Shown here: in pieces, positions 2,769 through 59,827 of the stretch
Layout of the letters: every line of letters starts with the position of its first letter
Numbering within the stretch: position 1 is the stretch's first letter
Assembly: GCA_012549035.1 (NCBI GenBank)
Contig: GCA_012549035.1_4805.1
Origin: a phage
DNA length: 64,000 bases
Strand: one strand, 5' to 3'
Notes under the pieces: model-generated
Database searches by the model: none
Seen by the model: the letters and a program-made list of their open reading frames with translations, nothing else
What the model was told of the DNA's origin: nothing
Translations under genes and position numbers: made by a program

Positions 2769-3493
2769 TCTATCATATCCCCAGTTCTGTTTCCAGGTCC
2801 GTTACCTATGTGACCGTGAGTGGATACATTTGTGCCGCCGATTGTTGTGCCAGTCGGAAGCGTTGCCGTCGTTCCTTCTTTCCCTTCTATACCACCATTG
2901 AACGTTGCCTTTCCATTAACTATCAATTGTTGGTCGATAGTGGTTATTGGTGTTTTCACATTTACTCCAGCCGATGCAGTTATGTTTATCGAGTCATCAC
3001 TTAATGCGATTCGTACAGCGCCGCTGAGTGACTGAATTACCATTGAGCCTGCATCCTCTCCGCTTATGGTGTATTTTCGGAATACATCCGGTATGAACAG
3101 TCCATCAGCGAAAGTTTTCGCGCGGCCATTGGTAGGCGCGGTCGGCTTCAATTCTTCAAGGAATGTCGATAACTCGCGGTCGCCAGCGAATATCCAGCCC
3201 AAATCGCCCTCTTTCAAAGGAAAGTTGATCACGAAGCCGCCGCCGCCAATTGCCAATACAGGAATTGACACCAAAGGTTGACGCTCCACTGGTTTATCAT
3301 CAAGACTTACGAAATGAATAACAGGCTTTATGACTGCTAAATTTTGTTTGCGGTCATAAGATATTACTTGTGCAGGAATCATGCCGTCAGTGGTATACTT
3401 GCCACGGTCCAGCATTCCCTGCAGCGCGGCAAACATACTTGATTTGTCAGTTTGGTTGGGGCTTGTAAGTTGGGTTAACTTTTCTGCCATCAT
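2765..3493 (-). CDS. Baseplate central spike protein (gpV / Gp138-N-like, putative)
   Basis: ORF with AAGGAG SD before tandem ATG at 3493/3490; Gly-rich C-terminus with HGH motif as in phage spike tips; context next to J-like gene. Confidence 0.45.
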   Translation of the reverse strand: MMAEKLTQLTSPNQTDKSSMFAALQGMLDRGKYTTDGMIPAQVISYDRKQNLAVIKPVIHFVSLDDKPVERQPLVSIPVLAIGGGGFVINFPLKEGDLGWIFAGDRELSTFLEELKPTAPTNGRAKTFADGLFIPDVFRKYTISGEDAGSMVIQSLSGAVRIALSDDSINITASAGVNVKTPITTIDQQLIVNGKATFNGGIEGKEGTTATLPTGTTIGGTNVSTHGHIGNGPGNRTGDMIE

Positions 3494-3550
3494 AGACTCC
3501 TTAGATCTGATCAACAAATTATAATCTATAAGGAGTCTATAAGCAATATT

Positions 3551-17856: not shown

Positions 17857-17968
17857 CCACCCTCAAATAAGTATTGTGTATTATATCTAATGAAAAAAAC
17901 TTAGGCAAACAATAATTATGGTTTGAATATGTATAACAACCGATATAGCCGCGCCTTTATTAGTGTGA

Positions 17969-18193
17969 TACGGATGATACGGATAAAATGAGGCGTATTT
18001 TTATCCGTATCGGTGTATAAGCCGCGCTATCACTGGTGTGCTACGGATGATACGGATGATACGGATACTTTTCATATATAAGAGTTTATAAAAAAAAATA
18101 AAATTAAATTATATATATAATTTTAAATTAATTTATTTGAATTCCTATATAGTACGGCGGCAACGCGTATCATCCGTATCATCCGTAAGATTC
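17969..18193. repeat. Iteron cluster R1 (GATACGGAT-type 9-bp units) flanking extreme AT-rich tract
   Basis: GATACGGATGATACGGATA (x2), inverted TATCCGTATC, CTACGGATGATACGGATGATACGGATAC (x3), AT-rich 18075-18150, then 29-bp GCGTATCATCCGTATCATCCGTAAGATTC (18165-18193) identical to 34419-34447. Confidence 0.6.
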
Positions 18194-18273
18194 TTTTGAA
18201 AACAATAACTTACTTGATACGTATGATACGTCATTATACGTATAAAACTCGCGGCAATCCTTTGCCGATGAAT

Positions 18274-18411
18274 TCAGTGGATATTAAATAGCACTCCTGC
18301 AACTAAAACGCCAATCAGCATTGAGTCATAAACAGCCCATTTCCAAGAAAGCAAAGAGTTGCAATTAATATTTCGCACTTTAACATAATGTGACTGAATA
18401 ATCTTTTGCAT
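18274..18411 (-). CDS. Small membrane protein (45 aa)
   Basis: Hand-translated MQKIIQSHYVKVRNINCNSLLSWKWAVYDSMLIGVLVAGVLFNIH; GAGGAAG SD before ATG; hydrophobic C-terminus; below ORF-track size cut-off. Confidence 0.4.
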   Translation of the reverse strand: MQKIIQSHYVKVRNINCNSLLSWKWAVYDSMLIGVLVAGVLFNIH

Positions 18412-18421
18412 AACTTCCTCT

Positions 18422-28889: not shown

Positions 28890-28916
28890 AGGCGCTGAAA
28901 AGCGCCTTTACTTTAT
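28890..28916 (+). terminator. Intrinsic terminator after tail fiber gene
   Basis: Stem aggcgct/agcgcct, GAAA loop, T-rich tail. Confidence 0.5.
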
Positions 28917-28964
28917 GCGCTATTAAGTTATACTCATTATACGTTAACAAGTGAGGTGAATGAA

Positions 28965-30146: not shown

Positions 30147-30241
30147 TGAATCCAATCGTTACAATTAACAAACCGATTTGAATGCCGCGCTATGCGGCTT
30201 TATTATAATTCAAGTTAATCACCCTCATGAAAGGTAATGAT

Positions 30242-34091: not shown

Positions 34092-34237
34092 ATTGGCTGT
34101 AAACGTACATAAATCATAGTGCTGAATGAATATCGGACCGTGGTGCGTGGTGTACTGTTTGATACGTATAAAAGAAATCCATCCCTTTCGCCGCTTGTTA
34201 TGCAAATCAATGACTTAGCCGCTGCTGGCTGGTTGAA

Positions 34238-34513
34238 GCGTATCATGACGTATCATCCGTATTGCCGCAAGTCTTTGTTTTTACTTATATCTTACGGATA
34301 ATACGTTAAATATATAAATTAACATAAGTATGAGGATGTAGAAAAAAATTAATTTAAATTAATTCAAAATGGAGTTAATTAATTTTTGAAATAATTCTGG
34401 TTACAATAAGGAAAAATGGCGTATCATCCGTATCATCCGTAAGATTCAGTGTACAAATCCAGGCGCGGCGCACCCTAGCGCCATGATACGGATAAAAACC
34501 TATCCGTAAGAGT
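34238..34513. repeat. Iteron cluster R2 (GATACGGAT / ATCCGTATC 9-bp units) flanking AT-rich tract
   Basis: GTATCATGACGTATCATCCGTAT, TTACGGATAATACG, 29-bp GCGTATCATCCGTATCATCCGTAAGATTC (34419-34447), inverted pair TACGGATA-N6-TATCCGTA; AT-rich block 34305-34410. Confidence 0.6.
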
Positions 34514-48340: not shown

Positions 48341-48493
48341 TGTTGACGTAAATTTACGAAAAATAAAACTGAAAATCAGTTTAATTAAAGTGGCATTGCC
48401 GCCATAGTTTTTAGTTGCTACTGGCGGCAACTGAAGGCATAATTAAGTTATCCCAAACGGGGAATATAAAATAAACTAATTTATTTAAGGACT

Positions 48494-50469: not shown

Positions 50470-50477
50470 TTTGCTTT

Positions 50478-50514
50478 CTGCTTCAATGGGCGTATACTTT
50501 AATCATTGAAGCAG
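50478..50514. repeat. 11-bp perfect inverted repeat (ctgcttcaatg / cattgaagcag)
   Basis: 15-nt loop, no T-run; between FAD gene and secreted-protein gene. Confidence 0.5.
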
Positions 50515-50534
50515 AACTCATAGAGGAAACGAAA

Positions 50535-50981
50535 ATGAAACGAATCACTGGAATCGCGCTTGCCGCAACCGCTATTCTCGGCACCATGTATATGGAAGCT
50601 ACTGAAGCGGCTGTCCGCACTTCCGATTCAGTAGCTGTGTATGATTGCGAAGCGATGGACGGTAAAACCGCAGCAGCCACTGGCGCAACTATCACGGCTT
50701 ACATCGGCGTGAACGAGCAAGAAGGTCTGAATATTCAGATTCAAGGATTCACAGGCAAAGGTGCCAACCGCACTCCTTGGATGCAACGTTTCACTTTCGT
50801 TCAGCCTCGTTCAACTGGCGGCTTTATCAACCTGATTGGTGAAAATCGTTCTGGTGCAGAAATCTTTACATCAATGAGTTCTAATAATGAACCAAAGAAA
50901 AGTTTTCAGTTGCTTTATAACGCACAATTCGTTTATCATTGCACCTTCTCTGGTGATCAGCAACTAGTAAATTACCGTTAA
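50535..50981 (+). CDS. Secreted hypothetical protein (signal peptide)
   Basis: N-terminal MKRITGIALAATAILGTMYMEATEAA; 148 aa. Confidence 0.5.
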   Translation: MKRITGIALAATAILGTMYMEATEAAVRTSDSVAVYDCEAMDGKTAAATGATITAYIGVNEQEGLNIQIQGFTGKGANRTPWMQRFTFVQPRSTGGFINLIGENRSGAEIFTSMSSNNEPKKSFQLLYNAQFVYHCTFSGDQQLVNYR

Positions 50982-51804: not shown

Positions 51805-52673
51805 GCATTAAAAACAGCGAAATCTTAAACGTATTCGACCTTGACGGAACGCTGTTTGATGACCGTTGGCGCTTAGACCGCATCAAGGTGGCAGGTCCGT
51901 TGTCAGACTATGATGACTATCACAGCGGTATTGGTTATGATCAGTTCTATCCTCACATTGCATCAGCAGTAGAGTCGGCATCTCTTCGCGGTGAGGCGGT
52001 TGAATATTGGACTGCAAGGCCAGAAAAATACAGACAAGTGACTTTTGAACGTCTGGACAATGTTTTCCCTTTTGATGAATTTACAATCAAGATGAGAGAC
52101 TATGGCGACAAACGTCCATCAACTATTATGAAATCTGCATGGCTATCGCACGCTTTGCGGCACGGCGATTATCGAATCATCAATGTATTCGACGACCGAC
52201 AAGACGTACTCGCGCGGATGCAAGATGAAGCATTGTATTATAACTCCGTTGCTCAAAATAAAATCGCTTTTACATTTAATCTTTGCAAAGCAGGTGAAGT
52301 GGTGCAACAATTAGCAATTGATCCAAGCGCAACAGGGCAAGAAGAGACTAAGGCTGTGGAAGTTGAACAATCTCCGGCAACTGCCGCCGATATTCTTGAT
52401 GCGATGGCCGCGACCTTCCGTGAGCGCAATGCCGTTTATGGCGATAACGCTGTGATGGTAGGTCAGGTTATGCAGGTGTTGTTCCCTAATGGCGTAACTT
52501 TGAAGACACCGGAAGACTACCACATGTGGCATCTGTTCGAGCTTAAGATTGTCAAGCTTACACGCTTCGCAATCAGCGGCCTGAAGCACGAAGACTCAAT
52601 ACGCGACGATGGTGTTTATAGCGCCATGTGTGAACGTCTTGTAAACACCCATAATATTAATTTCAATAAATAG
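51801..52673 (+). CDS. HAD-superfamily phosphatase-like protein with unknown C-terminal domain
   Basis: HAD motif I FDLDGTL near N-terminus, later VFDDRQDV; 290 aa. Confidence 0.45.
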   Translation: MSIKNSEILNVFDLDGTLFDDRWRLDRIKVAGPLSDYDDYHSGIGYDQFYPHIASAVESASLRGEAVEYWTARPEKYRQVTFERLDNVFPFDEFTIKMRDYGDKRPSTIMKSAWLSHALRHGDYRIINVFDDRQDVLARMQDEALYYNSVAQNKIAFTFNLCKAGEVVQQLAIDPSATGQEETKAVEVEQSPATAADILDAMAATFRERNAVYGDNAVMVGQVMQVLFPNGVTLKTPEDYHMWHLFELKIVKLTRFAISGLKHEDSIRDDGVYSAMCERLVNTHNINFNK

Positions 52674-52717
52674 TTTACTTGTGCGTTTCGATGAGTTATA
52701 TTTACCTCATCGAAACG
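52674..52717 (+). promoter_or_regulatory. Promoter-like element with 12-bp perfect inverted repeat CGTTTCGATGAG-N10-CTCATCGAAACG
   Basis: TTTACT, 17-nt spacer, TATATT; right half-site CTCATCGAAACGAA recurs at 59538-59550. Confidence 0.45.
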
Positions 52718-52738
52718 AAGTCCAAAAAGGATAAATAA

Positions 52739-53422
52739 ATGAAAAAAGTAATTGTTGTAACAGGTTCCAATTCCGGTCTTGGTAAATCTATTTTTGACAC
52801 CCTTGGCGCTTACGGTCATAACGTGCTTGGCATCGATTCAGCATACGGATATGACGTCCGCGATGCTAAACAGATGAAAGAAATTTTAAGCCCATGTGAT
52901 GTTGAAGGCTTGATCAACTGTGCTGGTGTCAACTCTAACAATTGGTTTGAAGATGTAAACTATGAAGAGTTTAACCGCGTTATGCACACCAACGCATTCT
53001 CTTTCGTTAACACGACTCAGGCTGCGCTGAAAAGTCTTATCGACAACAAAGGCTTTGTGATCAACATCGTTTCCAACGCTGCGCATATTCCTATGACGTC
53101 CAGCTTGTGTTATAATGCATCCAAGGCCGCTGCGCTTATGATCAGCAAGCAGATGGCTCACGAACTTACGCCTAAGTACGGCATCACGGTATTCTCTATT
53201 AGTCCTAACAAGTTGCGCGGCACTGGCATGTCTAAACAGATTGAAGATGCCGTTTGCGCGACTCGCGGCTGGACTCCTGAATACGCTGCTGAATACCAGA
53301 AAAAGGCATTGATGAATGGATTGGAAACTGAGCCGCAAGTAATTGCTGACTTCATTCGCCATATCTTAATTACGGGCGCATGGCGCTTTATGTCTGGCAC
53401 TGATATTCCATTTGGTAAATAA
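52739..53422 (+). CDS. Short-chain dehydrogenase/reductase (SDR)
   Basis: TGSNSGLGKS cofactor motif, NCAG, catalytic YNASK. Confidence 0.7.
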   Translation: MKKVIVVTGSNSGLGKSIFDTLGAYGHNVLGIDSAYGYDVRDAKQMKEILSPCDVEGLINCAGVNSNNWFEDVNYEEFNRVMHTNAFSFVNTTQAALKSLIDNKGFVINIVSNAAHIPMTSSLCYNASKAAALMISKQMAHELTPKYGITVFSISPNKLRGTGMSKQIEDAVCATRGWTPEYAAEYQKKALMNGLETEPQVIADFIRHILITGAWRFMSGTDIPFGK

Positions 53423-53514
53423 CAAACATTTGAAGTTGTCACACCCGCTCCTGAAAAGAAACAGGACGAAGACAACACAGTAATTAATCAATAATATTTA
53501 ATTAAGGAAACAAA

Positions 53515-54066
53515 ATGCCACATTTTAAAATTGAACAAATCGCCCTGTCAATTCCAGATGCTCAGCGCGCACAGGATTTCTTGGCTAAAATCGGCCTGAC
53601 AGAATGGTTCCATGATCATGTTGTTGCTACTGGTCGCGTATTTGAAGCTGATGACTTTAAAGGTCGTCGCGACGATTGCACCAATGAAGCTGACTTGCGC
53701 TTCAACTATCAGGCTGGCAACGGTACTGATGGTGGCGCTGGTAAGCCTCTTGAGCTTGAAATCCTTGACTACACAATGGGCTGCAACTGGATTAACGAAA
53801 ACATCGAATATATCGATGCGCATGACAATCAGGTCAGCCATCTTGGCATGCACGTAACTGCCGCTGAACTTGCTGAATGGCGTAAGTTCTTTAGCGAAGA
53901 AGGCATTCAGGTTGCACAGGAAGTTGTAACTGACTCTCATACCAACCCGAACATTGCTGGTCAACGTCGTTACAACTATGTGATCTTTGATACGCGTGAA
54001 ATCATCGGTGTTGATTTGAAGTTTATCGTGCGCTTGAATCAAGACGGTACTCCGTACACTGTATAA
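53515..54066 (+). CDS. Hypothetical protein (possible VOC/glyoxalase-like)
   Basis: 183-aa ORF; weak His/Glu pattern only; tentative. Confidence 0.4.
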   Translation: MPHFKIEQIALSIPDAQRAQDFLAKIGLTEWFHDHVVATGRVFEADDFKGRRDDCTNEADLRFNYQAGNGTDGGAGKPLELEILDYTMGCNWINENIEYIDAHDNQVSHLGMHVTAAELAEWRKFFSEEGIQVAQEVVTDSHTNPNIAGQRRYNYVIFDTREIIGVDLKFIVRLNQDGTPYTV

Positions 54067-54082
54067 CGAATCGTGAATCTGT

Positions 54083-54107
54083 GGCCGTCCTAATGGGCGG
54101 CCTTTTT
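54083..54107 (+). terminator. Intrinsic terminator
   Basis: ggccgtcc-taat-gggcggcc followed by ttttt. Confidence 0.6.
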
Positions 54108-54120
54108 GTAGGAGGCCAAT

Positions 54121-54663
54121 GTGTTATTTCTCCCTTATGACTTCGAAACAACCGGATTAACCGTGCACCCGAAAGCGCCGCTTGGAATGCAGCCGCGCCC
54201 TATTGAATTTGCAGGCTTGCTGACAGACGGCAAAGAGATTCTTGAAACGTTTGAATTCATAATTAATCCTGAAATCGTGATCGAAGAAATCATCACAAAG
54301 ATTACCGGATTAACAAATGAAGACCTTGAGTGCAATCCACCGTTCATCAATTTCGTCCCGCAGCTAAAAGAAATCCTCAAGAAGACTGATGCAACTATCG
54401 CGCACAACCATGCGTTCGATAAAAACATTCTTGATTATGCACTACAGCGCGAAGGACTTACGCTTGATGATGTTAATTTTCCAGAAATAAACATATGTAC
54501 AGTTGAGCAAACCTTGCCTATTTTTGGCCGAAGAGTTAAGCTTCAAGAGCTGTATGAATTATATTTCGGAAAATATGAACAGAAGCACCGTGCATTAGAC
54601 GACGTAATATTACTGCACAAAGTCTGCCAACAAATTGGCGTATATGACATCTGGAGTAAATAA
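54121..54663 (+). CDS. DEDD-family 3'-5' exonuclease (DnaQ / epsilon-like)
   Basis: GTG start after AGGAGG SD; Exo I DFETTGL, Exo II AHNHAFD, Exo III HRALDDV. Confidence 0.75.
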   Translation: MLFLPYDFETTGLTVHPKAPLGMQPRPIEFAGLLTDGKEILETFEFIINPEIVIEEIITKITGLTNEDLECNPPFINFVPQLKEILKKTDATIAHNHAFDKNILDYALQREGLTLDDVNFPEINICTVEQTLPIFGRRVKLQELYELYFGKYEQKHRALDDVILLHKVCQQIGVYDIWSK

Positions 54664-57560
54664 TGTTTCCACAATTGAGAGTTCGCAGCGGTTACACGTT
54701 CAAAGAAGTTTATGGACGGCATCCTGAAATTATAGCACGGCTCAAAGAGTTGGGCTGCGAAGTCGCGGCATTAGTTGATAACAACACATGGGGTCACGTT
54801 CGCTGGGAAAAGGAATGCCAGAAAAATGATATTAAGCCTATGTTTGGAATGGAGATTCCAATCATCGACCCTGATGCGGACCCTAAAAAGGGATTCAAAC
54901 CGAAGGCTTGGATATTGGCCCTTGACTTAAAATCTTTTTACAACGCTACAACACTTTCAACGCAGCGCGGTGGACTTACCCGTTCAGAGTTCGGTGCGCT
55001 CGATGGCGTCGTTAAATTCTGTGGCGGTGCCGTGGAGTTGCTGCGGCCAGAGGACTACGACTATATAGACGTCAACCCATCATCGTTCCTTTTGGCAAAG
55101 CGCCAGGCATTGGCTCATCGTAGCAGTGGAAGGCCGCTGGTTTTAACCGGATACAACCACATGCCTTCACCTGAGCACGTTGACTTTGCTTATGCGTGGG
55201 AAGTGCGCGACACGGTCAAGCCGCACTGCATCGTTGACGCGGAAGACTTGCGCAAACAGCTTAAAGGCATCTTGACTGAAGATGAGCTCAATCAGGCAAC
55301 GGCCAATGCTGTTGACATAGCAAACGGCATAGTCGGACTTGACCTGAAATTACGCAAGGCACCGATTATTCACCTTGCTGGTGACATGGTAAAGCTTGCT
55401 CGCGAGGGTATGGAGTACCGTCTAAAAGCAGGTCACATCAAAGAATGGACTCAGGAATACGAGGACCGCTTCAACGAAGAAATTCACCAGATTCAGCTGA
55501 AAGATTTCGACTCATACTTTCTGGTGGTAGCGGACCTTGTACGATTCGCAAAAACAAAAATGCTCGTCGGTCCTGCGCGCGGCTCATCGGCTGGTTCACT
55601 TGTTTGCTATTGCCTCGGCATCACGGAAGTGGACCCAATCCCGTATAAGCTGCTGTTTGCCCGATTCATCGACGTAAGCCGCGCCGACCTTCCTGACATC
55701 GACATCGACTTTGAAGATACCAAACGCTATATGGTGTTTGATTATCTTAAAGAGAAATACGGCGAAATGAACGTTGCAAAGCTTGGCAACATCAACACGC
55801 TTAAGGCCAACTCAGTAATGGCTCAAGTTGGTAAGAAGTTCAACATTGGATACCACGAAACAGCCAACATTAAAAACGCACTGCTTGAATACTCATCCGG
55901 TGACGCCCGTTATGGTCACGGCCTGGAGGATACCTTTGCAACAACGACCACGGGTCAAGAGTTCGTGGCTAAATATCCCGATGCCGCGCGATGCATGGGT
56001 GACCTTGAGATTCACCCTTCCCACACTGGCGTTCACGCAGCGGGAATCATCGTGTGTAATGACCCAATCTCTGATTACTGTACTGTAACTGCAGAAGGGA
56101 TTGCGCAAATCGATAAGCCTGACAGCGAATACCTCAACCTTTTGAAGCTTGATGCACTGGGCCTTCGTACTCTCGGCATCATTTCTGATACAGGCGTCAT
56201 TGATGCTGAAACGCTGTACGGAATCAAGCTTGATGATCAAAGTGTCCTTGACATTCTTAATGAAAACAAAATGTCAGGCATCTTCCAGTTTGAAGGTGAT
56301 GCTGTACGCTCAGTAACAAACTTTGTGCACGTCGATAACTTTAACAAAATCGACAACCTGACGGCGTTGGGTCGACCTGGACCATTGTCATCCGGTATGG
56401 CCCAGAAATACATTGAACGCGCGGCAGGGCGTGCGCCGATTGAGTACGACGTGCCGCAGCTTGAGCCGTACTTGAAAGAGACTTACGGCGTGTTTCTTTA
56501 CCAAGAGCAAATCATGGCCGTGGTTAAAGAGATTGGTTCATTTGACTGGGCGAAAACATCCGCTGTACGTAAGGCGATGTCAGGCCGTAAGGGTGAGGAA
56601 TACTTTAACAAGCTTGGCGAAGACTTCGTTGCAGGCGCAATAAATAATGGCGTGCCGGAAGCGGATGCAAGAAAGCTTTGGCAGGCGATGGCGACGTTCG
56701 GGTCATGGGGCTTTAACAAGTCACACTCCGTGTCATACGCGGTCGTGACCTACTGGACCTTGTGGCTTAAACGACACTACCCGTTGGAATTTGCCGCTGC
56801 TTGCTTACGCGCTGCTAAGGACGAAGACCAGACGATTGCGATATTACGTGAACTTGCGAAGGAAGGCGTGGATTATGTGCCAATCGATCCTGATCACTCT
56901 TCAATGAACTGGACCATCGCTAACGGAAAGCTAATCGGCGGCATCATGAACGCTAAAGGGTACGGAATGGTGAAGGCGATGAAGTACATCGAAGCACGTG
57001 AAGCCGGAACCTTAACGCAAAAGCAGAAGGATGCATTGGCCAATGCTGAAGTCAAATACGGCGACCTTACAGAGATGCACACCAAGTTCGGCTGGGCATA
57101 TAATGACCCATATCTTATTGGCGTCACTTCCGGCGCTTCAATACGCCAGATGAAGGAAGTAGGCGATGATGAGCGTGCAATAGTAATCGGCAAGTTGACA
57201 AAGAAAGTGCTTGCGGACGAGAATGAAGCAACACGCATCCGTAAACGACTTGAGCGCGGCATCTATACAAAGCACGGCAAGCTTAAAAAGGGTCTTCAAG
57301 CTGATGGCCGCTACGCAGAGTTTGACCAGTACGGGAACAAGCTTGAGACTCAGTTCATCGACCTTATGTGCAAAGACGACTCGACCGACTCGCCAATGCG
57401 ATTCAGGATTCGTCCAGAGAAGTTCCAGAAGTACGGGAAGTACATCGCTGAAAACGTCGGGAACGGCGCATTCTTCCTGATGAAAGGTCGTAAGCTTGAA
57501 GGCATTGACATGTTCATTGTTGACGTGATCAAACAGGTGTACCCAGATGGCAACAAATAA
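54663..57560 (+). CDS. DNA polymerase III alpha-like (DnaE-family) replicative polymerase
   Basis: 965 aa; GSSAGSLVCYCLGITEVDPIPYKLLFARFIDVSRADLPDIDIDFE matches DnaE palm region; N-terminal PHP-like region lacks the usual His-rich motifs. Confidence 0.7.
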   Translation: MFPQLRVRSGYTFKEVYGRHPEIIARLKELGCEVAALVDNNTWGHVRWEKECQKNDIKPMFGMEIPIIDPDADPKKGFKPKAWILALDLKSFYNATTLSTQRGGLTRSEFGALDGVVKFCGGAVELLRPEDYDYIDVNPSSFLLAKRQALAHRSSGRPLVLTGYNHMPSPEHVDFAYAWEVRDTVKPHCIVDAEDLRKQLKGILTEDELNQATANAVDIANGIVGLDLKLRKAPIIHLAGDMVKLAREGMEYRLKAGHIKEWTQEYEDRFNEEIHQIQLKDFDSYFLVVADLVRFAKTKMLVGPARGSSAGSLVCYCLGITEVDPIPYKLLFARFIDVSRADLPDIDIDFEDTKRYMVFDYLKEKYGEMNVAKLGNINTLKANSVMAQVGKKFNIGYHETANIKNALLEYSSGDARYGHGLEDTFATTTTGQEFVAKYPDAARCMGDLEIHPSHTGVHAAGIIVCNDPISDYCTVTAEGIAQIDKPDSEYLNLLKLDALGLRTLGIISDTGVIDAETLYGIKLDDQSVLDILNENKMSGIFQFEGDAVRSVTNFVHVDNFNKIDNLTALGRPGPLSSGMAQKYIERAAGRAPIEYDVPQLEPYLKETYGVFLYQEQIMAVVKEIGSFDWAKTSAVRKAMSGRKGEEYFNKLGEDFVAGAINNGVPEADARKLWQAMATFGSWGFNKSHSVSYAVVTYWTLWLKRHYPLEFAAACLRAAKDEDQTIAILRELAKEGVDYVPIDPDHSSMNWTIANGKLIGGIMNAKGYGMVKAMKYIEAREAGTLTQKQKDALANAEVKYGDLTEMHTKFGWAYNDPYLIGVTSGASIRQMKEVGDDERAIVIGKLTKKVLADENEATRIRKRLERGIYTKHGKLKKGLQADGRYAEFDQYGNKLETQFIDLMCKDDSTDSPMRFRIRPEKFQKYGKYIAENVGNGAFFLMKGRKLEGIDMFIVDVIKQVYPDGNK

Positions 57561-57969
57561 CCGTGAGCAGAAATACATATTCGTCCCATTGAAGAAGCAT
57601 TCGGAATCAATATTGAAGCTTCAACGAATCGAGTCAATGACGGGCGATGGCGTGCCGGACGTAATCGGCACCAACCGGAAAGGGCGCGGCTTTTGGCTTG
57701 AAATGAAGTTCTTTGAATCGTGGCCTGCAAGGGCCACCACTGCACCTTTCAGAAATGCATTTGAGAAAGGCCAATGCAGCTTTCTTTCTTCGTGGAATGA
57801 TTGGAAATACCCATCATTTGTTCTGCTTAAGGTTGATTCTGAGAAGATGTTTTATTTAGTCCACCCTTCTATTGAATTAAAGCGTTATAATACTGCAGAC
57901 GTTCAACGTGAGATAATCGTGAAGGGAACTATTCATCACATCATCAAGTATTTAGAGGAATTGTCATGA
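57547..57969 (+). CDS. VRR-NUC-like nuclease (PD-(D/E)xK)
   Basis: GVPDVIGTNRKGRGFWLEMK fits PD...E-x-K; lies directly upstream of SNF2 helicase. Confidence 0.5.
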   Translation: MATNNREQKYIFVPLKKHSESILKLQRIESMTGDGVPDVIGTNRKGRGFWLEMKFFESWPARATTAPFRNAFEKGQCSFLSSWNDWKYPSFVLLKVDSEKMFYLVHPSIELKRYNTADVQREIIVKGTIHHIIKYLEELS

Positions 57970-59489
57970 AAACACAAGGAATGCGCCACCAATTATTGGC
58001 GCTTGATAAAGCAGGCCGCAGAAAATACTTTGCTTATTTCATGGAGCAGGGTCTTGGTAAAACCTGGACTGCTTTGGCAGAGTTTGAAAAGCATTTCACC
58101 GCTGGCGCATTTGACGCCATGGTTGTCATCGCTCCTAATGGTGTACACTCAAACTGGATTCGTCGTGAAGCGCCAGAGCACCTTTCCATCAAGTGGATTG
58201 GGCATTACTGGCGCGGCAATGACAAGATGAAAACTAAAAAGGGCAAAGCAATTTGGGAGAAGATGTTTGCTGATCACTATCCTGAAGGTGAAGTGCCTGC
58301 GCGCATCTTCTCATTCAACATTGACACGGTGAATACGCCAGTCGGTTATCAACACATTGAGTCCGTACTGAAGAAGTACCGCTGTTTGATGATCATTGAT
58401 GAATCGACGCGTATCAAAAATAACACAGCCAAGCGTTCCATCAAGGTTGTGGAATTGGGACGGCTGGCAAAGGCCCGTCGAATCCTTTCCGGTACGCCGC
58501 TGCCGCGCTCGCCTGCTGATATTTACATGCAGTATCACTTCCTTGAAGCTGGCTTGCTTGGCACCAAATCGTTCCGTGCATTCAATTCTGAATTCACGGT
58601 GCTGCTTGAAGCGCACGACCCAGAGATGCAGGCCATTCTCAAGAAAATCGGCGGCAACGGTTATGGCATTCCGCAAGTGCCGCGCAAAGACCAGTTTGGC
58701 CGACCGATGTATAAAAACCTTGACAAGCTTATCCGGCTGATGGAGCCGCACTATTTCCGCGCGACAAAAGCGGAATACCTGCCGGAACTTCCAGAGAAGG
58801 TGTACAAGTTTATCGACTTCGAGTTGTCGCCTAAGCAGCGCGATGTCTATGATGAACTCAAGAATGAGTACAACTATCTGATGGAGTATAAAGGCGAAGA
58901 AGAAAACGTTAAGTTTGAGATGATCGCATCTCGCACTAAGATGAAGCAGGTGACATCAGGCTTTGTTAAGGTGTATGATGAGATGGTCTACATGGAAGAT
59001 AACCCACGATTCACGGCCTTTAAGGACTATGTTGAAGGGGTGTTGGAAGATGACCCAGAGCGCAAATTCATTGTGTGGGCAATCTTTAAGGAAGAGATGA
59101 ACCAGATTAAGGATTGGCTTGAGTCTGAAGGCGTGGTCACTGGTGTGTACAACGGTGAAACGTCAAAAGAGCAGCGCGAGTTCTTGATTGATGACTTCCA
59201 GAAAAACACAGTCGAGAACGGTGGGACGCAAGTCTTAGTTTGTCACGCTGCAGCGGCAGGCATCGGAATCACGCTTACCGCCGCCGACTTGGCAATCTAT
59301 TATTCTTGCAACTATGACAACGAGTTGCGCAAGCAATCCGAAGACCGAAATCACCGCATCGGCACCAAATCAAGCGTGTTGTATGTTGATTTTATTGGGG
59401 TTGATACCATCGACGAAGAAATTCAGCGTTCATTGAGTATGAAGTCTATGCTTGCTGATCACATCCTCGACGGCAAAAAGATGAATTAA
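57966..59489 (+). CDS. SNF2-family (SF2) helicase
   Basis: Motif I GLGKT, motif II MIIDESTRIKN, C-terminal helicase motifs. Confidence 0.75.
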   Translation: MKTQGMRHQLLALDKAGRRKYFAYFMEQGLGKTWTALAEFEKHFTAGAFDAMVVIAPNGVHSNWIRREAPEHLSIKWIGHYWRGNDKMKTKKGKAIWEKMFADHYPEGEVPARIFSFNIDTVNTPVGYQHIESVLKKYRCLMIIDESTRIKNNTAKRSIKVVELGRLAKARRILSGTPLPRSPADIYMQYHFLEAGLLGTKSFRAFNSEFTVLLEAHDPEMQAILKKIGGNGYGIPQVPRKDQFGRPMYKNLDKLIRLMEPHYFRATKAEYLPELPEKVYKFIDFELSPKQRDVYDELKNEYNYLMEYKGEEENVKFEMIASRTKMKQVTSGFVKVYDEMVYMEDNPRFTAFKDYVEGVLEDDPERKFIVWAIFKEEMNQIKDWLESEGVVTGVYNGETSKEQREFLIDDFQKNTVENGGTQVLVCHAAAAGIGITLTAADLAIYYSCNYDNELRKQSEDRNHRIGTKSSVLYVDFIGVDTIDEEIQRSLSMKSMLADHILDGKKMN

Positions 59490-59502
59490 TATCAAAAATA
59501 AT

Positions 59503-59550
59503 TTGACTTGTCACGGAAGATGAGTCATAATTACTTCATCGAAACGAAAC
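59503..59550 (+). promoter_or_regulatory. Promoter-like element homologous to 52674-52717
   Basis: TTGACT, 17-nt spacer, CATAAT, then TTCATCGAAACGAA; AGAGGA SD before ATG 59564. Confidence 0.45.
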
Positions 59551-59563
59551 AGAGGAATACAAA

Positions 59564-59827
59564 ATGGTACGCATCCTTGAACGTTACAAAAATGAAGCTA
59601 CTGGAGTAATCGCTTTCAAACGTCTTTTGGTCAAAGAAATTGACGGAATGTTCCGCGTTGTTAAAGAGTTTGATTATGGCAACGGTGCTGGGGTGAATAC
59701 CGTTATTATGCCTGGCATCAAGGCATATAAAACCTTAAAAGGCGCTGAGAAGGCTTTGGCGGCTTGGAAACCTGAACGTTATCAAATGACCCGTGTTGAA
59801 GGGCTAATGCAAGAAGGTAAAATATGA
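59564..59827 (+). CDS. Hypothetical protein
   Basis: 87-aa ORF. Confidence 0.5.
   Translation: MVRILERYKNEATGVIAFKRLLVKEIDGMFRVVKEFDYGNGAGVNTVIMPGIKAYKTLKGAEKALAAWKPERYQMTRVEGLMQEGKI

Follow-up and report, generated by a model that had tools for sequence, protein, structure and literature searches.

Putative promoter/stem-loop cassettes upstream of two genes in the replication module of a Wifcevirus genome

Locus and phage context

We studied two similar intergenic elements, E1 and E2, in 64,000 nt of phage DNA (GenBank assembly GCA_012549035.1, contig GCA_012549035.1_4805.1; this whole stretch is referred to as the window). Each element combines promoter-like hexamers with an inverted repeat. 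The window represents about 93% of the genome of a Wifcevirus, i.e., an E. coli myovirus with a genome of ~68-72 kb, and shows 96.7% identity to the phages SP13 and F13 over 12 kb. The taxonomy given in the record of phage kaset is Lindbergviridae; Wifcevirus. Both elements are part of the plus-strand module for replication and nucleotide metabolism (46.8-63.5 kb). E1 is located in a 65-nt gap between a polynucleotide kinase/phosphatase (PNK) gene and a FabG-like SDR gene, E2 in a 74-nt gap between an SNF2-type helicase gene and an open reading frame (ORF) of 87 aa.

Promoter features of E1 and E2

E1 and E2 have in common a -35 hexamer TTKACT, a 17-nt spacer, a -10 hexamer (T/C)ATAWT and, directly behind it, TACYT-CATCGAAACGAA. 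Respective coordinates are provided in Table 1. The hexamers agree with the consensus at 9/12 (E1) and 10/12 (E2) positions. An A/T-rich tract precedes E1 (~52655-52673), with the PNK stop codon inside it, as well as E2, and the two tracts resemble each other. Exactly 7 nt past the -10, both elements show an A (A52709, A59538), which we use as the predicted start site; the sites are named as predictions because no transcript mapping was found for Wifcevirus. The resulting leaders up to the ATG, each including a Shine-Dalgarno sequence (SD), comprise ~30 nt in E1 and 26 nt in E2.

Within the window, the combination is restricted to the two sites. When up to 3 mismatches are allowed, the pattern TTKACTTGT-N7-GATGAGTNATAWTTAC matches solely at 52674-52705 and 59503-59534, while no match is found in 100 shuffles. 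The same holds for exact copies of TCATCGAAACGAA, which are present in the window solely at 52707 and 59536. The first-pass annotation of this DNA had reported the two elements with their shared boxes, and both read in the sequence as it described them. It had also named, as evidence against such a conserved element, an outcome of only these two partial matches in the genome together with no associated transcript starts. Two matches is literally what the motif scan of the window returns, but the count does not decide the matter, since E1 and E2 are members of a far larger family that reaches beyond this genome (see below).

The likeness of E1 and E2 extends beyond the boxes. In an ungapped alignment anchored on the -10, 50/78 positions are identical, while the 153 pairs of 18 predicted window promoters, used as a baseline, give a mean of 27.2 +/- 4.9. 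BLAST detects two element places in most complete Wifcevirus genomes and one place in 3/29 of those listed. Both elements are near-invariant across 13-20 Wifcevirus genomes, and the core promoter of E1 is identical in 20 of them save for one change in the flank.

The promoter positions are kept in other genera as well, i.e., the E2 promoter is orthologous to the promoter behind the SNF2-type helicase gene of Kylevirus, Myosmarvirus and Carpasinavirus. For the region upstream of the SDR gene, we sampled 13 IMG/VR and 68 metagenome loci, among which the promoter was found solely in members of Wifcevirus and Myosmarvirus. In the more distant phages of these loci, the PNK and SDR genes abut with no promoter between them.

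Given near-consensus hexamers, the 17-nt spacer, the A/T-rich tract, SD and ATG downstream and conserved positions, the promoter reading of the first-pass annotation holds up: that E1 and E2 are predicted promoters of the host (sigma-70) type is well supported by sequence. Host-type promoters are also expected in this phage group, since the related Pbunavirus 14-1 has 26 mapped sigma-70-like promoters, several of which were active in E. coli (PMC10914365).

Stem-loops of E1 and E2

The perfect 12-bp inverted repeat that had been reported around the -10 of E1 is confirmed (Table 1). Its loop of 10 nt holds the -10 TATATT, and its 3' arm is the start module, i.e., the sequence following the -10 that is discussed in the next section. 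The helix can be extended, since ACTT (52677-52680) pairs with AAGT (52718-52721). For RNA reading through E1 from upstream, we obtain a predicted fold of -25.2 kcal/mol (z -4.9), while RNA starting at A52709 is predicted to be unstructured. When the hexamers are kept fixed and only the rest is shuffled, fold z values are -4.9 for E1, -2.2 for E2 and -5.0 for E3, a further cassette of the window (see below). Since the 5' arm is located in the promoter spacer, upstream of the predicted start, the E1 repeat does not form a hairpin at the 5' end of the transcript, as the first-pass annotation had offered as one option. The hairpin ends at 52717-52721, leaving 6-10 nt to the SD and ~18-22 nt to the AUG, and the SD region folds alike in read-through and in E1-started RNA.

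Among 20 Wifcevirus genomes, the only change within the E1 stem is C52716T (Bas101), which results in a G.U pair, and a common C/T polymorphism (52705) falls in the loop. At the orthologous site of Kylevirus, the stems ACGCCTCT/AGGGGCGT (Kyle) and ACGCCGTA/TACGGCGT (PA1) are three compensatory pairs apart, and Myosmarvirus shows GGCCA-AGGA-TGGCC. That is, a hairpin is always present at this site, while its position differs between genera.

E2 forms a different stem, which joins the -35 to the -10. Around the -10 itself, the E2 repeat is reduced to GATGA/TCATC, unlike the dyad of E1. The arms of the E2 stem are formed by ACTTGT and GATGAGT, which explains the two boxes described in the first-pass annotation. 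The promoters orthologous to E2 have a stem in identical register with different bases. Here, we used a gapless alignment across four genera (Wifcevirus, Kyle, PA1, the Myosmarvirus group and Xanthomonas phage Carpasina), in which 92% of the cells are paired, compared to 27-54% when the partner is slid. Double changes are observed in 5/9 pairs, and no shuffle reached the observed covariation score.

Which of the two stems is formed is decided by seven spacer bases that differ between E1 and E2. The E1 version of these bases adds pairs to the stem with the start module, and the E2 version closes the stem from -35 to -10.

Table 1. Positions of the elements, their parts and further features within the window.
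Feature	Position	Strand	Composition
E1, whole element	52674-52719	+	TTTACT-TGTGCGTTTCGATGAGT-TATATT-TACCT-CATCGAAACGAA
E1, core promoter	52674-52702	+	-35 TTTACT 52674-52679, 17-nt spacer, -10 TATATT 52697-52702
E1, start module	52703-52719	+	TACCT-CATCGAAACGAA; predicted start A52709; SD AAGGA 52727-52731; SDR/FabG-like ATG 52739
E1, stem-loop	52684-52717	+	arms CGTTTCGATGAG 52684-52695 / CTCATCGAAACG 52706-52717, perfect 12 bp
E2, whole element	59503-59548	+	TTGACT-TGTCACGGAAGATGAGT-CATAAT-TACTT-CATCGAAACGAA
E2, core promoter	59503-59531	+	-35 TTGACT 59503-59508, 17-nt spacer, -10 CATAAT 59526-59531
E2, start module and leader	59532-59563	+	TACTT-CATCGAAACGAA 59532-59548; predicted start A59538; SD GAGGA 59552-59556; ATG 59564
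E2, stem-loop	59504-59527	+	arms TGACTTGTC 59504-59512 / GATGAGTCA 59519-59527; 9 bp including two G.U; loop ACGGAA
E3	50470-50516	+	TTTGCT-17-TATACT; perfect 13-bp repeat TTCTGCTTCAATG 50476-50488 / CATTGAAGCAGAA 50504-50516 straddling the -10
3492 cassette	3492-3546	-	TTGCTT 3546-3541, 17 nt, TATAAT 3523-3518; arms 3540-3529 / 3503-3492, perfect 12-13 bp
87-aa ORF	59564-59827	+	phrog_27467; behind E2; Wifcevirus-specific insertion at this slot

A start module shared with unrelated phages

The sequence behind the -10 can be generalized to YAYYY-CATCGAAACGA, which we call the start module; in E1 and E2, five pyrimidine-rich nt are followed by CATCGAAACGAA. A BLAST search with E2 matched 439 phage records, far past Wifcevirus. 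By inspection, we found the sequence following the -10 in the phi80 immunity region, in the T1-like Citrobacter phage Stevie and in Yersinia phage YP10S2 and, with some changes, in Klebsiella phage KP13-27 and coliphage MM01. In the phi80 immunity region (GenBank M11919), the sequence is TTGACC-17-TTTAAT-TACTC-CATCGAAACGAAAC, located 8 nt before the annotated nutL. From this position, the promoter is presumably pL; the record annotates nutL and N but not the promoter.

We further scanned IMG/VR for the pattern, which gave 40 loci in a first scan and more than 120 loci among the matches listed in a looser second one. These matches include at least 123 distinct instances of CATCGAAACGA in unrelated phages, and for 123/123 of them an nAnnnT hexamer is found exactly 5 nt upstream. 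At least 68 of the 123 listed instances are followed by SD and start codon, mostly with a 5' untranslated region of 25-35 nt. At least 45 continue into lambdoid nut/put-like leaders, for which spacer and -35 (presumably the operators) all differ, and one listed copy precedes a tRNA gene. Carriers are T1-like phages (several copies per genome), phi80-type and other lambdoids, where the site is that expected for pL, as well as jumbo-phage contigs. The T1-like phage CJ19 has 5 exact copies, where ~0.006 are expected from length alone, and several near copies besides, each of them behind a -10. The leader of E2 also resembles those of T1-like, Yersinia and Klebsiella phages.

Most module copies of CJ19 are accompanied by a second box, ATAGCAC-N4-TTGCTAAA, further upstream. 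A box ATAGCAC-N4-TTG(C/T)TAAA is found ~20-25 nt upstream of the -10 in CJ19, Stevie, YP10S2 and MM01, which is too far for a standard -35. It may represent a phage-specific promoter class or a factor-binding site; in the Stevie record, it is annotated as 'repeat_region' alone.

Since the module is constant behind promoters of heteroimmune temperate as well as virulent phages, a Wifcevirus regulator cannot have it as its operator. The constant spacing from the -10, combined with varied downstream contexts, suggests that the module acts at initiation or at the RNA 5' end; transcripts probably begin with AUCGAAACGAA. That the module precedes mRNAs, nut/put leaders and at least one tRNA argues for an effect on initiation or promoter escape of the enterobacterial RNA polymerase or on the fate of the RNA 5' end, and against one on translation. 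It is conceivable, though we hold it only tentatively, that the module itself is a functional element not previously described, acting in RNAs that begin with AUCGAAACGAA. We found no description of it in the searchable literature, and text searches with motif strings gave nothing relevant. Stems pairing with the module are formed by E1 and by ~17% of the non-lambdoid copies among the matches listed. If the module is functional, such stem-loops would mask its sequence specifically in read-through RNA.

A general leader motif AAACGAA was also considered, but it was dropped since no enrichment was found. As further candidates we considered a pause element (AACGAA compared to AACGAT of lambda pR'; sigma-dependent) and sites of Cra, PurR or NarL, none of which, we presume, fits well.

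Further promoter-hairpin cassettes in the window

A scan of the window for perfect inverted repeats gives nine repeats of at least 10 bp (2.2 expected) and four of at least 12 bp with loops up to 30 nt (~0.1 expected). Three of these four straddle a predicted -10, namely E1, E3 and the cassette at 3492-3546, and their arm sequences are unrelated.

E3 precedes an ORF of 148 aa for which no family match is found, and the cassette shows no variation in 13 Wifcevirus genomes. A separate fold prediction for E3 gives a z value of -3.5. The orthologous sites of Kyle and the Myosmarvirus group show short spacer hairpins, i.e., GCTCA-AGGA-TGAGC and ATGGCGCT-ATTA-AGCGCCAT. A search of the whole window against Rfam yields 0 families at gathering score; a weak match near E3, at 50596, is a chance miRNA hit.

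The 3492 cassette lies upstream of a baseplate-spike gene. Here, the SD (TAAGGAG) is part of the 3' arm, which abuts the ATG at 3493. The predicted fold of the read-through RNA has -23.4 kcal/mol (z -3.9), while RNA from the internal promoter is open. Serratia phage MyoSmar shows an equal arrangement of different sequence (CGCCATTATAATA / TATTATAATGGCG) at the orthologous gene.

With regard to position, the hairpins are found at internal promoters that have co-directional genes just upstream and no separate terminator (3492, 48396-48443, E3, E1 and E2). Among the window promoters examined, none was found at those of the divergent regions (22.6 kb, 46.7 kb) or behind a strong terminator (49441). 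The sequences 3' of the stems are AAGTCCAAAAAGG for E1, CTCATAGAGG for E3 and the weakly U-rich TAATTACTTC for E2. A terminator scan of the window called none of the three stems.

Three further overlaps of hairpins and promoters were observed. A 9-bp repeat (48396-48404 / 48422-48430) straddles the -35 of TTGCTA-17-CATAAT. At 28891-28934 and at 30178-30206, a terminator overlaps a promoter. At the former site, the U-tract of the hairpin GGCGCT-GAAA-AGCGCC is the -35 TTTACT; at the latter, the hairpin GCCGC-GCTAT-GCGGC (at 30184) is located inside the spacer of TTGAAT-17-TATTAT.

Gene flux around the elements

At the DNA level, genes of Seuratvirus and of further unrelated phages are ~80% identical to the 87-aa gene behind E2, which also has homologues in Drexlerviridae and Klebsiella phages. 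The orthologous loci (18 kb) of Kyle, PA1, the Myosmarvirus group and Carpasina lack this gene. Directly behind the orthologous promoter, Kyle, PA1 and the Myosmarvirus group have a DUF7307 gene, and Carpasina has a different ORF of 113 aa in the slot. Judging by these comparisons, the slot behind the post-helicase promoter is an insertion hot spot and the 87-aa gene a horizontally acquired insertion.

For E2, the upstream half has its orthologue in the ancestral promoter, and the start module, leader and gene are similar to those found in T1-like phages. Given this half-and-half resemblance, E2 looks chimeric. The downstream half of E1 matches the ancestral promoter of Kylevirus at its own site (TTATCTCATCTTAAACGAAC), and its -35 and 3' spacer match E2. 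This pattern probably reflects copying or gene conversion between the two cassettes. The two elements are alike because they have the start module and the mutually pairing boxes ACTTGT and GATGAGT in common.

The gap behind the SDR gene (53423-53514) differs among Wifcevirus genomes. An extra ORF of 56-71 aa is present in kaset, Mansfield and RCIP0319, and FEC19 has ~100 extra bases. This variation, seen at four loci, indicates indel activity inside the unit driven by E1.

Elsewhere in the window, ATCCGTATC/GATACGGAT units recur in the long non-coding stretch 17857-18421, accompanied by a perfect 13-bp repeat (17976-18011) and a palindrome of A/T only (~18088-18138). Similar ACGGATGATACG units are found near 34250 (region 34206-34374). 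Both repeat-rich stretches could be an origin or packaging region.

Interpretation and alternatives

We consider it probable, at roughly 0.6, that E1 and E2 are Wifcevirus promoters of the sigma-70 type that are built as composite promoter/stem-loop cassettes of the promoter-early stem-loop (PeSL) kind. From the observed sequence conservation, covariation, fold energies and distribution, we infer promoter activity, start sites and an effect of the stem-loops. In such a cassette, the A/T-rich tract, two hexamers 17 nt apart, the start module and a short leader with SD would form the promoter part, while bases free of promoter constraint, i.e., in the spacer and the early transcribed region, would encode the stem-loop. 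The E2 stem would thereby join -35 and -10, and the E1 spacer would have become complementary to the start module, which would give the 12-bp repeat around the -10. Since the 5' arm is always upstream of the predicted start, the stem-loop would form solely in read-through RNA. There, it would most likely attenuate the upstream transcript, end it or mark it for processing, while RNA started at the cassette itself would be unstructured and translatable. That hairpins are found solely at promoters receiving upstream transcription fits an attenuation of read-through and supports it indirectly. The G.U pairs of the stems, which are A.C mismatches on the other strand, favour sense-strand RNA over a cruciform or a protein site. 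Repeated cassettes would also serve as recombination points, in line with the 87-aa gene behind E2 as a horizontally acquired insertion.

The first-pass annotation had also proposed a site for a dimeric regulator. That is, the E1 dyad, with one half-site in E2, would bind a phage or host protein over the -10 and repress both promoters. The E1 repeat is in fact perfect, centred on the -10 and conserved across the genus, and its 3' half-site is common to E1 and E2. This half-site, however, is the widespread start module, which follows more than 100 unrelated promoters including those of heteroimmune lambdoids with differing spacer and -35, presumably the operators. The 5' half-site, and with it the dyad, is missing in E2, and no other copy of the dyad is present in the window. 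E3 and the 3492 cassette have the same geometry with unrelated arms, such that a separate regulator would be needed for each. In addition, 22 bp separate the centres of the half-sites, other window promoters show no enrichment of the heptamer CGAAACG, and the sole natural stem variant keeps the RNA pairing as G.U. An operator is thus very unlikely. We rate it just as improbable that the repeats act on the DNA level, i.e., that they extrude as cruciforms or hairpins in supercoiled DNA and thereby alter promoter strength (e.g., by a single-stranded -10, or by destroying the promoter). Such a structure would agree with the strictly kept register of the E2 stem in four genera, where base i pairs with 27 - i counted from the first base of the -35, and with the location of the -10 in the loop of E1, E3 and the 3492 cassette. 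But extrusion is poor when arms have 7-13 bp and loops 6-25 nt, G.T pairs of the stems correspond to A.C mismatches on the opposite strand, and hairpins are found solely at promoters with upstream transcription.

A gating of translation as known from T4 gene e would mean for E1 that folded read-through mRNA translates the SDR gene poorly while E1-started RNA is translated. This mechanism is established for T4 e, soc, 49 and I-TevI (PMC3014915). Both the cassette at 3492-3546 and its MyoSmar orthologue show exactly this arrangement, in which the 3' arm holds SD and AUG, and E1 has an equal promoter-in-hairpin geometry. However, the E1 hairpin stops short of SD and AUG, and its SD region folds alike in both RNAs, as is also the case for E3, which makes this gating unlikely at E1. 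Finally, the repeat might be a by-product of ancestry alone, i.e., E1 and E2 would be duplicated or converted copies of one promoter. The likeness over ~70 nt includes non-essential positions, and the match of the E2 upstream half and the E1 downstream half each to the Kylevirus ancestral promoter of its own site suggests patchwork copying. Still, a perfect 12-bp repeat is not expected by chance, the seven spacer bases differing between E1 and E2 are exactly those that decide on the stem, and three independent perfect repeats of one geometry are found in one genome. Ancestry as the only explanation is therefore quite unlikely.

The interpretation as promoter/stem-loop cassettes has to be weighed against several observations, too. 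We found no paper on Wifcevirus promoters or transcripts in the literature, such that promoter activity, start sites and timing are all deduced. The E1 stem is near-invariant within Wifcevirus and thus provides no covariation of its own. Only ~6 of the 18 predicted window promoters have a hairpin (~6-7 in 64 kb), which is far below the hyperplastic regions of T4-like phages. E1 and E3 lack a U-tract and would be poor canonical intrinsic terminators; their stems could serve RNA processing, stabilization of RNA ends or another effect instead of attenuation. The role of the start module is left unexplained by the cassette model. Repeats straddling the -10 in T1-like phages have a conserved inner 6 bp, but their covariation is suggestive only, with pair counts not above those of shuffles. 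When discriminators are swapped among them, complementarity to the own discriminator is 4.98 compared to 4.50 +/- 0.09, which is significant, but solely in this permutation, which ignores relatedness.

If the cassette interpretation is correct, it extends the PeSL idea, i.e., a promoter plus attenuator stem-loop in a 50-70-bp cassette that is also a recombination joint, from T4-like phages to a myovirus family unrelated to them and, apparently, to phages of the T1 type. It would account for the transfer of small accessory genes, e.g., the 87-aa ORF, among unrelated coliphages along with their own expression signals. Compact expression cassettes and natural slots for insertion would be marked for use in phage engineering; the Wifcevirus vB_Eco4M-7 has already been synthetically rebuilt (PMC11074155). 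The 12-nt transcript start in common with phi80-type promoters is a candidate determinant of promoter strength or of RNA 5'-end behaviour.

Comparison with known systems

Hairpin promoters of the N4 virion RNA polymerase have stems of 5-7 bp and 3-nt loops, are used by a phage polymerase and lack -35/-10 hexamers. As in E1 and E2, a DNA repeat forms part of the promoter. An N4-type virion RNA polymerase is not annotated in the Wifcevirus records examined, where the inspection covered part of each genome. Operators overlapping the -10 and MerR dyads likewise place a dyad over core promoter elements. Operator dyads are sequence-specific and common to all sites of one regulator, and promoters regulated by MerR have spacers of 19-20 nt. 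In contrast, the spacer here is 17 nt, the arms differ between cassettes, and orthologous sites covary.

The presumed pL of phi80-type phages shares with E1 and E2 the sequence TAC(T/C)C-CATCGAAACGAAAC after the -10. It differs in that its spacer and -35 carry immunity-specific operators, no hairpin is present, and the leader runs into nut/put instead of an SD.

In T4 e, soc, 49 and I-TevI, a late promoter is located inside a hairpin that sequesters the ribosome-binding site, and the promoter's own transcript lacks the 5' arm (PMC3014915). The cassettes of the window agree with this in that the promoter lies within the hairpin and solely read-through RNA folds. The cassette at 3492-3546, with SD and AUG in its 3' arm, fits the gene-e type fully. 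E1, E2 and E3 do not fit it because SD and AUG are outside the stems, and their promoters are sigma-70-like instead of T4 late (TATAAATA).

The closest likeness is to PeSL cassettes, which are known from the T4-type phages RB49/phi1, PST and nt-1. In the parts of the PeSL literature used here (Arbiol et al. 2010, PMC2839356; Comeau et al. 2014, PMC4122927), a PeSL is described as an early promoter that is strong and sigma-70-like, with the preceding stop codon inside its A/T-rich upstream region and with SD and start codon at the end. Its stem-loop, which includes G-T pairs, is located between -35 and -10 or over the -10; in a lacZ assay, it terminated upstream transcription, with a decrease in expression equal to that caused by a strong terminator. 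ORFans are flanked by PeSLs, which also mediate indels (PMC2839356, PMC4122927).

Compared with these descriptions, E1 and E2 show the sigma-70-like promoter with a 17-nt spacer, the A/T-rich tract with an upstream stop codon and SD/start at the 3' end. The E2 stem is located between -35 and -10, the E1 and E3 stems over the -10, and G.U pairs are found in the stems. The likeness may extend to repetition in the genome and to a location beside ORFans or accessory genes at sites of insertion or replacement: E2 is at an insertion hot spot and E1 at a unit with indels, but the 3492 cassette precedes a core baseplate gene. Differences to the PeSLs so described are the low copy number (~6-7 per genome), with sequence common to E1 and E2 alone, and the stems, which are not polyG/polyC and in E1 and E3 are long and perfect (12-13 bp), their loops enclosing the entire -10. 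Among the PeSL features reported in the literature compared, the start module CATCGAAACGAA does not appear. The host phage, too, is a Lindbergviridae-type myovirus and not T4-like. Since the window is from a Wifcevirus, the cassettes are classified as PeSL-like in another phage family and not as members of the T4 set. New is thus that a PeSL-like kind of cassette, known from T4-type phages, is found here in a new phage family.

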